Shown here one piece after another: positions 13,417 to 15,644 of a stretch of DNA of 19,784 bases. Below the pieces are notes generated by a model. That model ran no database searches and was not told the origin of the DNA. It saw nothing but the letters and a program-made list of their open reading frames with translations. How positions within the stretch are numbered: the stretch's first letter is position 1; each line of letters starts with the position of its first letter. A program made the position numbers and the translations under genes. Origin of the DNA: a virus (Duplodnaviria > Heunggongvirae > Uroviricota > Caudoviricetes); the IMG/VR virus record IMGVR_UViG_2690316049_000007, positions 1 to 19,784 of that record, one strand, 5' to 3'.

Positions 13417-14124
13417 ATGGATTTGAACAAATTCGATGAGCCATTCAGCCCTGAAGATATCGAATGGCGAATACAGCAAAGCGGTAAAACACGCGATGGC
13501 AAGGTGTGGGCTATGGTGCTGGCTTATGTCACGAACCGGGCAATCATGAAGCGCCTGGACGATGTTTGCGGCAAAGCAGGATGGCGCAATGAATACCGCG
13601 ATATTCCCAACAACGGCGGAGTTGAATGCGGCATATCAATCAAGATTGATTCCGAATGGGTAACCAAATGGGATGCTGCTGAAAACACGCAGGTAGAAGC
13701 CGTCAAAGGCGGTCGTTCCGGTGCAATGAAGCGCGCTGCCGTTCAGTGGGGAATCGGTCGGTATCTGTATAACCTTGAGGAAGGTTTTGCACAAACATCT
13801 CTCGATAAAAAGCAGGGATGGCACAGGGCAAAACTCAAGGATGGAACAGGATTTTACTGGCTCCCTCCATCGCTGCCGGGATGGGCAATCCCAGCATCAG
13901 ATAACAAACCATCACCAGAAAATACCAACCAGAAATCTCCATCGGTTGACTACGAACAAATCCTGAAAGACTTCAGCGATTTTGCATCGAAAGAAACTGA
14001 CAAGAAAAAACTCATCGAGCGTTATCAGCATGACTGGCAATTAATGGCTGGCAATGAGGATGCGCAGGCTAAATGCGTTCAGGTAATGAACATCAGAGTT
14101 AACGAACTAAAACAGGCGGCATAA
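13417..14124 (+). CDS. Single-strand annealing recombinase (Rad52/Sak-like N-domain with Erf-like C-terminal tail), 235 aa
   Basis: RBS GAGGTG. C-terminal ...ILKDFSDFASKETDKKKLIERYQHDWQLMAGNEDAQAKCVQVMNIRVNELKQAA resembles the P22 Erf C-terminus as recalled. N-terminal domain differs from Erf; Rad52-like assignment is tentative. Confidence 0.75.
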   Translation: MDLNKFDEPFSPEDIEWRIQQSGKTRDGKVWAMVLAYVTNRAIMKRLDDVCGKAGWRNEYRDIPNNGGVECGISIKIDSEWVTKWDAAENTQVEAVKGGRSGAMKRAAVQWGIGRYLYNLEEGFAQTSLDKKQGWHRAKLKDGTGFYWLPPSLPGWAIPASDNKPSPENTNQKSPSVDYEQILKDFSDFASKETDKKKLIERYQHDWQLMAGNEDAQAKCVQVMNIRVNELKQAA

Positions 14125-14598
14125 ATGGCAAGCAGAGGCGTAAATAAGGTGATCATTATTGGTCGCCTTGGGCATGATCCAGAAATCAGATATTCACCAT
14201 CAGGAACGGCATTTGCAAACCTTACAGTTGCTACGTCAGAACAATGGCGTGATAAGCAAACTGGAGAGCAAAAGGAGCAGACGGAGTGGCACCGCGTGGT
14301 AATGAGCGGGAAACTGGCAGAAATTGCCAGCGAATATCTGCGAAAAGGCTCTGAGGTTTATCTTGAAGGCAAATTGCGGACAAGAAAATGGCAGGATCAA
14401 AGTGGACAGGATCGGTTCACTACCGAAGTCATCGTGGGCGTTGGTGGAACCATGCAAATGCTTGGTGGCAAACAAGGAGGCAATGAACAGTCTTCACATC
14501 AGCGAAATAACGGTCAGCAACAAAGACAGCAATCTCAGCAGCAGGGGAATCACAGCGAACCACCTATGGACTTCGACGATTCGGATATTCCGTTCTAG
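14125..14598 (+). CDS. ssb: Single-stranded DNA-binding protein (SSB) with acidic C-terminal tip DFDDSDIPF
   Basis: OB-fold SSB signature ([39 protein letters not shown]...), Gly/Gln-rich linker, C-terminal DIPF tail. Confidence 0.9.
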
Positions 14599-14607
14599 GA
14601 GCTGAAT

Positions 14608-15087
14608 ATGAAAGTCTGCTCAAGATGCCATCAACAGAAGGAAGAAAGGGACTTTCAAATCAGAAGAGCATCCAGAGATGGATTAACTGCCGCTTGCCGG
14701 GCTTGCCTGGCTGAATACGACAAAGAACGCGCTGGATTGCCACATCGAGTATCAGCAAGGAGAGAATATCAATCATCGGAACGCGGAAGAGAACGGTGTA
14801 ACGCAGCCAAAAAGCGGTTCATTCAGAGCAACCCATGGAAAAGAAAAGCCCACATCATTGTGGGTAATTTTTTGCGCGACGGTAAGCTAATCCGACCACC
14901 ACAATGTGAGTGCTGCGGATCAGAATGTAAACCACAGGCGCACCACTGCGACTACAGCAAACCAACCGATGTGATGTGGCTCTGCAAGTCATGTCATGTC
15001 GAGTGGCACAAACATAACAAACCTATCTACCCAGACGAGGAACCAGTAACTCTCCCCTTCCCTCGTCACGCTATTCACGCAATTTAA
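14608..15087 (+). CDS. HNH-like zinc-finger protein (putative HNH endonuclease), 159 aa
   Basis: AGGAG RBS. N-terminal CxxC...CxxC, C-terminal CECCGSECKPQAHHCDYSKPTDVMWLCKSCHVEWH, which fits the CxxC...HH...CxxCH HNH architecture. Confidence 0.65.
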   Translation: MKVCSRCHQQKEERDFQIRRASRDGLTAACRACLAEYDKERAGLPHRVSARREYQSSERGRERCNAAKKRFIQSNPWKRKAHIIVGNFLRDGKLIRPPQCECCGSECKPQAHHCDYSKPTDVMWLCKSCHVEWHKHNKPIYPDEEPVTLPFPRHAIHAI

Positions 15088-15095
15088 GGACTTAC

Positions 15096-15644
15096 ATGAA
15101 TCACTTAATGGTTGACCTTGAAACAATGGGCAACGGGCCATATGCGCCAGTTATTTCTATTGGTGCGGTATTCTTTGACCCGAATACCGGAGAAACAGGA
15201 GAAGAGTTCTCGGTAAATATCTCGCTTGAGTCATCAATGCGATATCGGGCGCGTCCTGACGCTTCAACGATTTTATGGTGGATGGAACAGAGTGAAGAAG
15301 CCAGAAAATCGCTAACCAGCAACACTCAAGAGCTTTCAACGGCTCTTTCATGGTTATCTGAATTCATCATAAAGAACGCTAACCACAAATTCGTTCAGGT
15401 TTGGGGGAATGGAGCATCATTTGACTGCGTTATTCTCCGAAACAGTTATTCACTGACAGGGCAGCCAGTTCCGTGGCAGTGGTGGAATGACCGCGACGTA
15501 AGAACAATCGTCGAACTTGGGAAGGTAATAGGATTCGACCCTAAGCGAGATATGCCATTCAAAGGAACTCGCCACAACGCGCTTGATGATGCCATTCACC
15601 AAGCCAAATACGTTTCAGCGATCTGGAAAAAGTTAGCTAAATAA
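15096..15644 (+). CDS. DEDDh-family 3'-5' exonuclease (DnaQ-like), 182 aa
   Basis: MVDLETMG (Exo I motif), GNGASFDCVIL (Exo II-like), TRHNALDDAIHQA (Exo III with His), typical of phage 3'-5' exonucleases. Confidence 0.85.
   Translation: MNHLMVDLETMGNGPYAPVISIGAVFFDPNTGETGEEFSVNISLESSMRYRARPDASTILWWMEQSEEARKSLTSNTQELSTALSWLSEFIIKNANHKFVQVWGNGASFDCVILRNSYSLTGQPVPWQWWNDRDVRTIVELGKVIGFDPKRDMPFKGTRHNALDDAIHQAKYVSAIWKKLAK

Follow-up and report, generated by a model that had tools for sequence, protein, structure and literature searches.

An HNH-like gene as a candidate homing insertion in the 3' end of ssb within a lambdoid recombination module of Escherichia coli

The recombination (Rec) modules of lambdoid phages combine a protein that binds single-stranded DNA (SSB), a nuclease (DnaQ-like 3'-5' exonucleases and HNH proteins included), an annealing protein and an anti-RecBCD protein; a 2025 survey of 325 phages regards shuffling of partner-interaction domains as likely and found two genes of the same function in only three phages (PMC12315714). 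Here, we analyse such a module in a stretch of viral DNA of 19,784 nucleotides (IMG/VR record IMGVR_UViG_2690316049_000007), the whole of which is referred to as the window. The module encodes a single-strand annealing protein (SSAP), an SSB, an HNH-like protein and a DEDDh exonuclease, and is followed by the anti-RecBCD gene abc2. It is already known in sequence and kind and represents a catalogued type; what is fresh is that the HNH nuclease gene appears to have inserted itself, as a selfish element, right at the tip of ssb. The first four open reading frames (ORFs) listed below agree exactly with an initial annotation made from the sequence alone, whereas abc2 lies just beyond the interval which that annotation covered and was missed.

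13417-14124, plus strand: SSAP ORF, 235 amino acids, Sf6 gp28 type; PHROG 1097 (E 1.7e-128); DNA 98-100% identical in E. coli prophages, Bas106 and Sf6
14125-14598, plus strand: phage SSB ORF, 157 amino acids; PF00436 (E 1.7e-38); its start abuts the SSAP stop
14608-15087, plus strand: HNH-like ORF, 159 amino acids, Sf6 gp26 type
15096-15644, plus strand: DEDDh 3'-5' exonuclease ORF, 182 amino acids, DexA/Rv2179c-like; optional cassette between ssb/HNH and abc2
15661-15957, plus strand: Abc2 anti-RecBCD protein; PF11043 (E 7.4e-43), PHROG 656

The closest described modules are nearly the same DNA. Genes 28-27-26-25 of Sf6 are the same genes in the same order and operon context, lacking the exonuclease cassette, and the SSAP-SSB-HNH segment is 98.3% identical to Sf6 genes 28, 27 and 26. 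Genes 0034-0030 of phage CurroJimenez_Bas106 are essentially the module of the window, with abc2 following and 98.7% identity over all four genes; the window copy is an E. coli prophage beside cscB. The four-gene block (2.2 kb) is 100% identical in E. coli chromosomes, and 438 of 5,426 complete genomes match it, 33 of them with at least 80% of the block. The same module is also found in the siphovirus mEp235. Modules of the ES18/epsilon34 type hold the same four functional classes contiguously, the epsilon34 gene set having been described as Abc2, a nuclease, SSB and an Erf-like protein (PMC2629481). The modules of epsilon34 and mEp235 share with the window the SSAP, the SSB family, the DnaQ-like nuclease and abc2, whereas the window carries two nucleases, HNH-like and DnaQ-like.

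More distant systems share the plan and differ in the parts. The arf-erf-abc1-abc2 genes of P22 occupy the same early-left position after cIII and kil, include the same abc2 and encode an SSAP whose C-terminal 70 or so residues are homologous. P22 has an ERF core (PF04404), the Arf cofactor and Abc1 and lacks SSB, HNH and exonuclease genes, whereas the window combines a Rad52 core with an SSB and with two cassettes for nucleases. HK620, a P22-like phage, has a Sak4-SSB-Abc2 module in which the recombinase gene precedes a phage-encoded SSB and abc2, and recombinase loading depends on the tip of that SSB (PMC5928155); unlike the window, it uses the RecA-like ATPase Sak4 and a DUF669-type SSB and has no Erf-type tail. 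It is nevertheless the best experimental model of the cooperation between SSAP and SSB in the window. Lambda Red (Exo-Beta-Gam) and RecET likewise couple control of RecBCD to an annealing protein of the Rad52 superfamily whose C-terminal domain binds a partner. In contrast to them, the window has no 5'-3' exonuclease partner, its exonuclease is by family of the opposite polarity, and RecBCD is modified (Abc2) instead of blocked (Gam).

Downstream of CI-like and N-like genes, the gene order of the window is cIII, kil, SSAP, SSB, HNH, exonuclease, abc2, ead/Ea22 and DUF551, and the flanking cIII, kil, abc2, ead/Ea22 and DUF551 genes are common to the window and the matching phages. This order and the early-left context agree with the definition of a lambdoid Rec module (PMC12315714). 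We therefore regard the region, with good though not full confidence, as the Rec module that a lambdoid E. coli prophage of the Sf6/P22-like (Lederbergvirus) type carries in its leftward early operon.

The main finding comes from the junction of ssb and the HNH-like gene, whose relevant features are as follows.

14560-14598, plus strand: SSB acidic tip and stop, recoded from 14569 relative to HNH-less alleles; left edge of the HNH cassette
14905-15009, plus strand: putative catalytic module of the HNH-like protein (C100, C103, H112, H113, D115, Y116, (D121), C126, C129, H130, H134)
15042-15087, plus strand: last 14 HNH codons and stop (PVTLPFPRHAIHAI), the DNA of which is identical to the 15-codon extension after IPF in HNH-less ssb; right edge of the HNH cassette

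The DNA of HNH-less and HNH-bearing ssb alleles is identical through CCACCTATG and then diverges. HNH-less alleles continue from CCACCTATG with GATTTTGACGACGATATACCCTTT GCACCAGTAACT, encoding DFDDDIPF and then APVTLPFPRHAIHAI, and the ssb product of mEp235 accordingly ends PPMDFDDDIPF-APVTLPFPRHAIHAI. The window allele reads CCACCTATG GACTTCGACGATTCGGATATTCCGTTC, TAG, GAGCTGAAT and ATG, with the HNH ORF terminating in PVTLPFPRHAIHAI, and HNH-bearing alleles in general read (G/A)ACTTCGACGATTCGGATATTCCGTTC, TAG, GAGCTGAAT and ATG. The HNH-less 3' end, as found in HZ41, HK75 and mEp235, contains CCACCTATGGATTTTGACGACGATATACCCTTTGCACCAGTAACTCTC; the window's own allele contains CCACCTATGGACTTCGACGATTCGGATATTCCGTTCTAGGAGC. 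The HNH-bearing tip is thus recoded at most wobble positions and has one extra codon; a stop and a ribosome-binding site come next, and then the HNH ORF. In an alignment with mEp235 and Sf6, the last 46 nucleotides of the HNH ORF (15042-15087) proved identical to the 3' end of the mEp235 ssb.

To place these alleles in a broader context, we collected 80 IMG/VR loci with a close relative of the window SSB and scored five genes in each by tblastn. The HNH gene is present sporadically, in 21 loci, also among 97-99% identical ssb alleles, and in every one of these 21 a stop follows the variant tip. The remaining loci comprise 46 with DDD[IV]PF and the 15-residue extension, seven with DDD[IV]PF and a stop and three with the variant tip in the absence of HNH; one truncated and two unparsed loci complete the set. 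A second HNH allele, 47% identical, sits at the same site in an mEp235-type ssb, again beside a recoded tip (MNFDDEIPF). The association extends to the HNH family as a whole: when 80 IMG/VR loci with a member of the family are clustered at 70% identity, 24 clusters result, and in 23 of these an ORF with an acidic IPF tip lies upstream of the HNH gene, its stop being 2-51 nucleotides away in 20 clusters and 140-181 nucleotides away in three. The SSBs upstream of HNH belong to three unrelated types (PF00436, DUF669 and PHROG 743), and the recombinase of the module is Rad52, ERF or Sak4/AAA_24. We found no description of the arrangement of an HNH gene in the ssb tip in the literature searched.

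Distant phage SSBs keep the 15-residue extension at the protein level, Vibrio phage K443 having APVGLQFGKKFMHVI and a Klebsiella Mydovirus APIGLPYGRNFIHCI, which argues that the extension belongs to the SSB from ancestral times and that the HNH gene is the insertion; from this we infer the direction of the event. In the proposed course, the HNH gene would have inserted between the IPF codon of ssb and the 15-codon extension, bringing with it a recoded tip, a stop and a ribosome-binding site. The HNH ORF would have taken over the ssb extension as its own C-terminus, and as a side effect the SSB would have regained a free host-like IPF tip. This takeover would also explain the GenBank note on Sf6 gene 26, according to which it "contains 14 contiguous amino acids identical to E. 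coli SSB".

Free-standing homing endonucleases of T-even phages (Seg and Mob, with mobE splitting nrdA in Aeh1) occur sporadically at a fixed site beside or within a highly conserved gene, with a diverged flank. In Seg/Mob-type homing, the split host gene still works. Sporadic presence at one fixed site beside a conserved target, the pattern by which homing genes are recognised, is also what the HNH gene of the window displays. The HNH family differs from Seg and Mob in its N-terminal zinc ribbon, in an HNH-like module that has no Pfam HNH match and in its putative target, the sequence coding for the SSB tip. Homing is favoured because presence is sporadic among 97-99% identical alleles, the insertion point within the gene is exact and the flank is recoded. 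Most likely, with a chance that we put at close to even, the HNH-like gene is a free-standing homing endonuclease whose target would be the conserved tip-coding DNA.

Several points weigh against this assignment. In the view of the 2025 survey, HNH and DnaQ genes that are tightly packed probably do belong to the Rec module (PMC12315714), and the near-universal position behind ssb fits a functional partnership with the SSB as well as it fits homing. Instead of conferring immunity to self-cleavage, the recoded tip could simply be a mosaic junction that came along with the cassette. The counted loci are not phylogenetically independent, and the activities of all proteins considered here are read from their sequences. 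A corresponding alternative is that the HNH-like protein is a genuine recombination factor acting on SSB-coated DNA or with the SSAP, as P1 Ref does with RecA, and that its place after ssb reflects co-expression and partnership. Its sporadic occurrence among nearly identical ssb alleles, with no HNH detected in 59 of the 80 related loci, speaks against such a role, as do the precise insertion point inside coding DNA with a recoded flank and the second, divergent allele at the same site, and we consider the partnership the less likely of two readings that both fit. If homing is the correct reading, it may apply to the family: the zinc-ribbon and HNH-like proteins would form a widespread homing element for the DNA of the SSB IPF tip, which is conserved across unrelated SSB folds, and in the lambdoid lineage of E. 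coli and Salmonella, in which most phage SSBs have the extension and the tip should thus be masked, insertion would unmask the tip and move the extension to the nuclease, thereby switching SSB interactions. We put this generalisation forward tentatively.

The HNH-like protein itself is predicted to consist of an N-terminal CxxC...CxxC zinc ribbon that a helical linker joins to a zinc-bound beta-beta-alpha-Me module at the C-terminus. When 34 homologues (34-87% identity) are aligned, C100, C103, H112, H113, D115, Y116, H130 and H134 prove invariant, and C4, C7, C30, C33 and C126 nearly so. An AlphaFold2 (AF2) model with a predicted local distance difference test (pLDDT) score of 93 contains the zinc ribbon, four helices and a strand-strand-helix unit with the His residues; pLDDT is low at the last 14 codons (15042-15087), those shared with ssb. 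No match was obtained in Pfam, NCBIfam or the sequences of the PDB, the latter also with the family profile, and the sole annotation match is PHROG 2340, labelled 'endonuclease'. A Pfam scan of the 34 members gave zinc-ribbon noise and PF01844 in two of them at E 0.68 only. The putative HNH motif residues on which the initial annotation depends are conserved on alignment, while a match to a curated HNH family was not found; the label 'HNH-like' is reasonable and the nuclease activity putative.

The annotation of this gene is uneven in public databases. The exact protein occurs on 599 contigs, and the ORF is annotated in Sf6 (gene 26) and Bas106, while the NCBI Prokaryotic Genome Annotation Pipeline (PGAP) leaves it unannotated in RefSeq E. 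coli EC9 (L001:10183-10679, corresponding to window 14599-15095). Protein clustering at 90% identity places the HNH-like protein together with the SSB, to which it is unrelated; the joint cluster probably arises by chaining through SSB-HNH and HNH-exonuclease fusion ORFs (P0011, P0014 and P0024) and is a caution for cluster-based annotation. Other endonuclease genes were also observed in these regions: an E. coli prophage (L008:3060-3527) has a different HNH gene (Pfam HNH_3) between SSAP and SSB in addition to an HNH-like gene after ssb, and in another locus (L011) an HNH_3 gene lies just upstream of the ERF gene. The Rec module seems to be a hot spot of endonuclease insertions.

The SSB has the OB fold of PF00436, scores 184 bits against TIGR00621 (cut-off 54) and is 63% identical to the chromosomal SSB of E. 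coli, encoded beside uvrA. As the initial annotation had noticed, it terminates in a free host-like acidic tip, DFDDSDIPF. A tblastn search of phages with the whole protein showed that host-like SSBs are common in phages. The free tip is the minority state among close relatives, since 46 of the 80 loci have the extension after IPF; in the many phage SSBs that carry it, the extension runs for about 15 residues with the consensus A-P-[VI]-[GT]-L-[PQ]-[FY]-[PG]-[RK]-x-x-[IM]-[HY]-x-[IL]. Phage HZ41 has the ssb allele of the window (98.7% identical protein) and no HNH gene, and carries the same extension; ECP1 and HK75 are further HNH-negative relatives. The loci that bear the extension are listed here with the corresponding part of the window.

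L019:2209-2715: SSB of mEp235 with extension
L024: SSB of HZ41 with extension
L022:757-1293: SSB of Vibrio phage K443 with extension
L023:97-1317: SSB of Klebsiella phage VLCpiM5a with extension
15042-15087 of the window, plus strand: counterpart of the extension, within the HNH ORF

We found no description of this extension in the literature searched, including a text search for DIPFAP. The canonical SSB tip is thought to be bound via its free C-terminal Phe. Extension-bearing phage SSBs may therefore not be host-tip mimics, and the presence of an IPF tip under a 15-residue extension in most SSB relatives questions the assumption of host-tip mimicry.

The SSAP, encoded directly upstream of ssb, is divided into three parts.

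13426-13824, plus strand: Rad52/Sak-type annealing core, residues 4-136, Pfam PF04098 (Rad52_Rad22); most invariant part of the family alignment
13822-13893, plus strand: predicted beta hairpin followed by a W148-PP-x-LP-x-W156-A-x-P159 motif, residues 136-159, between the Rad52 core and the linker
13885-14121, plus strand: Erf-type C-terminal region, residues 157-235, a low-complexity linker and then a predicted three-helix bundle (about 179-234)

The core matches PF04098 with E 5e-26 (91.9 bits against a cut-off of 20.3), as do all SSAP homologues listed, and gave no match to ERF (PF04404) at E up to 0.1, whereas P22 Erf (from AF527608) matches PF04404 with E 4.6e-46. BLASTP aligned residues 157-235 of the SSAP with residues 134-205 of P22 Erf at 63% identity over 79 residues (E 5e-31) and showed no similarity between the N-terminal parts. 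The proposal of a non-Erf core with an Erf-like tail is substantiated by these matches, and Pfam does not assign the N-terminal domain to Erf. Searches of the PDB with the SSAP sequence and family profile returned no meaningful match, the profile reaching no solved RAD52 chain. W148, P151, L153, P154, W156 and A157 are invariant columns of the family alignment, and AF2 on an SSAP fragment predicted strands at fragment positions 8-11 and 17-20. The segment 136-159 was considered as a WW domain, but the match to the WW region of yeast Prp40 was not significant (E 0.036-0.095) and it is probably not a true one. The tail helices are predicted with pLDDT 84-89.

The full-length architecture is found across Enterobacterales (Yersinia, Erwinia, Pantoea, Hafnia and others) at 100% query coverage down to 56% identity. 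Beyond it, the tail is combined with other cores. tblastn on phages detected it on ERF-core proteins of Klebsiella, Erwinia and Morganella phages (31-41% identity), and a tail profile run against 1.8 billion cluster representatives retrieved 44 proteins, all with the tail at the C-terminus. Its partners were ERF cores (seven of the 10 scanned), Rad52 cores and a single RecT core, the remainder being gene fragments or deletion fusions; when the 62-residue tail alone was used in a word-indexed protein search, nothing but fragments came back, in which architectures are not visible. Among the retrieved proteins, P0257 was rejected as a fourth core type, because a normal Rad52-type core ends there and the N-terminal part is sequence read out of frame upstream of that end, and P0273 (a Dam fragment with the tail) and P0259 (a short ERF fragment with the tail) look like deletion fusions. 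Two metagenome contigs, L015 and L016, encode the same SSB and the same HNH-like protein (P0018) with an ERF core in one case and a Rad52 core in the other. A recent core swap between them was rejected, their Erf-type tails being only 33% identical. The domain shuffling suggested by the initial annotation is thus supported by the occurrence of the tail on Rad52, ERF and RecT cores, but not as a local or recent event, given how widely the architecture is distributed. A 'domain swap' of Erf had been described by 2008, and the genome paper of epsilon34 notes that gene 36 bears the name Erf only for its C-terminal residues (PMC2629481).

We take the three-helix tail to be a module that binds a partner and is portable between cores. 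The final seven residues of SSB are what RecT proteins recognise (bioRxiv 2020.04.14.041095), and Sak4 of HK620 cannot be loaded without the final six of the SSB that belongs to it (PMC5928155), which makes the SSB tip the best candidate partner. By this analogy our best guess, made with some reserve, is that the tail would bind the acidic IPF tip of the SSB, be it that of the host or of the phage. Against this, the tail is also present in phages without abc2 or ssb nearby, such as P22, which lacks ssb. The translational coupling of the two genes, proposed in the initial annotation, is suggested solely by their abutting codons: the stop TAA (14122-14124) directly abuts the ATG (together 14122-14127), which confirms the abutment, the coupling itself being putative. 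The other junctions of the block measure 8-16 nucleotides, with Shine-Dalgarno-like sequences overlapping the preceding stops, and no strong intrinsic terminator was found between 11534 and 17731.

The composition of the module was compared across the 80 SSB loci.

SSAP-SSB-EXO-ABC2: 27 loci of 80
SSAP-SSB-ABC2: 15 loci of 80
SSAP-SSB-HNH-ABC2: 12 loci of 80
SSAP-SSB-HNH-EXO-ABC2 (arrangement of the window): 7 loci of 80
Truncated or partial architecture: 19 loci of 80

SSAP, SSB and Abc2 form the recurrent set, and HNH and exonuclease are independent options, so the four genes are no obligate unit. The abc2 gene is present in 62 of the 80 loci and is annotated as anti-RecBCD in EC9, Sf6, mEp235 and Bas106. 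Among the ORFs from 11901 to 17701 there is no lambda Exo, YqaJ or RecE-type protein, the sole exonuclease being the DEDDh protein, which by family degrades 3'-5' and hence cannot make the 3' tails that the annealing protein needs. The constant SSAP-SSB-Abc2 set and the wrong polarity of the exonuclease make the P22/HK620 mechanism the most economical. While gene content, domain assignments, cassette boundaries and distribution were observed directly, the working core is modelled on P22 and HK620, from which activities and partners would be carried over. In this model, Abc2 would bind the host RecBCD, by analogy to P22, and convert it into a resection machine that exposes 3' single strands, so that end resection is probably supplied by abc2 through RecBCD. 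The phage SSB would coat the exposed strands, and the Rad52/Sak-type SSAP would be loaded on the SSB-coated DNA and anneal complementary strands, which would serve genome circularisation, recombination-dependent replication and repair.

The exonuclease follows the HNH-like gene directly, and its assignment to the DnaQ-like DEDDh proteins is borne out by a full-length match to PF16473 (Rv2179c-like, E 2.8e-73), by matches to the structures of T4 DexA (8kel/8ken, E 7e-14) and by the DEDDh model of PADLOC (E 2e-4). The residues D7, E9, D110, H160 and D165 were read from the sequence and the DexA alignment. With M. tuberculosis Rv2179c and T4 DexA the protein has in common PF16473 over its full length and the DEDDh residues. 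The phage enzyme DexA degrades DNA in the 3'-5' direction, takes part in homing-associated recombination and has 227 amino acids compared to 182 in the window, where the surface insertions and the tetramer-forming Asp of DexA are missing. As read from the alignment, W130 corresponds to DexA W152, and no Asp is found at the position of DexA D90. The gene is present in 37 of the 80 related loci, independently of HNH.

T4 DexA trims 3' tails in intron homing (PMC12153337). The exonuclease of the window is, in the likeliest though still tentative reading, an accessory 3'-5' enzyme for single-stranded DNA that would trim 3' tails or flaps in annealing intermediates in a similar way. It might instead be unrelated to recombination and act as a nucleotide scavenger like T4 DexA or in superinfection defence against phages with 5-hydroxymethylcytosine (5hmC) DNA. 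The latter is suggested by the short E. coli DexA homologue EcD, which lacks the tetramer-forming Asp, degrades T4 DNA and protects cells (Kang et al, 2025; PMC12153337), and the retained Trp, the missing Asp and the optional nature of the cassette would be in line with it. Yet the gene lies among recombination genes within the repressed early-left operon and not in a moron-like position with its own promoter, and PADLOC indicates no defence-system membership beyond the generic DEDDh model. What the protein is seen to share with EcD (HAK9828821.1) is DexA homology and the loss of the tetramer-forming Asp, an identity of the two being conjectural. A function outside recombination appears only somewhat less likely to us than trimming of annealing intermediates, which is slightly preferred.

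The initial annotation had suggested that the four proteins may together be a self-contained recombination and end-processing system, which can be spelled out as one co-dependent machine in which HNH would break DNA, the exonuclease resect it and SSB and SSAP anneal it; although the genes are contiguous on one strand with spacers of 0-9 nucleotides and no strong internal terminator, encode nucleic-acid enzymes or binders throughout and are kept together at 98.7-100% in Bas106 and 33 E. coli genomes, this is very improbable, because the nucleases assort independently (both in seven loci, HNH only in 12, exonuclease only in 27 and neither in 15), the exonuclease is missing in Sf6 and HNH in mEp235/epsilon34, HNH behaves like a mobile cassette, the DEDDh polarity removes instead of creating 3' tails, the flanking abc2 offers P22-type resection via RecBCD, and two same-function genes share a module in only the three phages of the survey (PMC12315714).

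The surroundings of the module contain further features. Upstream of it lie genes for a CI-like repressor, CII, N-like proteins and a 322-amino-acid coiled-coil protein, then cIII, kil and two small overlapping ORFs.

13144-13317 and 13238-13408, plus strand: two small overlapping ORFs, homologues of Sf6 genes 30 and 29, in the position of P22 arf

These ORFs encode 57 and 56 amino acids in different frames and match PHROG 2123 (E 9e-42) and 1723 (E 7e-35). Both families carry the PHROG label 'recombinase', for which the ORFs are far too small, and neither matches Pfam Phage_Arf. The early-left operon ends in strong terminator-like hairpins, which lie at 17731, 17763 and 18141. At its right end the window reaches into the host gene cscB (sucrose permease, LacY-like; 18939-19784), and its location after the terminators at 17731-18160 places the prophage junction at about 18160-18900; an excisionase-like (torI-like) gene lies at the same end, and no integrase gene is present here. 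In E. coli EC9 (L001, 1-6626), the Rec module stands beside a truncated Rha gene that is directly followed by head genes (capsid, portal and terminase), and the copy lacks the immunity and replication region of the window, which suggests a rearranged or defective prophage. The window also encodes a DnaB-like prophage helicase of 826 amino acids (5235-7715, minus strand), with the DnaB N domain at residues 13-117, DnaB_C matching as two separate stretches (best at 572-792) and a LAGLIDADG_3 match at residues 439-485. From these matches, the replicative helicase appears to contain an intein that in turn carries a homing endonuclease.

For a module of known type, the interest of these findings is modest and lies in the portable Erf-type tail, the masked-tip SSB extension and the HNH family linked to the SSB tip. 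For annotation, the SSAP is of the Rad52 type and not Erf, the HNH ORF is missed by PGAP in E. coli, and abc2 is part of the module. The portable tail on ERF, Rad52 and RecT cores is a handle for finding loaders of annealing proteins in enterobacteria and thus for improving the portability of recombineering. Finally, if true, an endonuclease family tied to the 3' ends of ssb genes would add a new target to those of homing and would drive mosaicism in the recombination-gene region.

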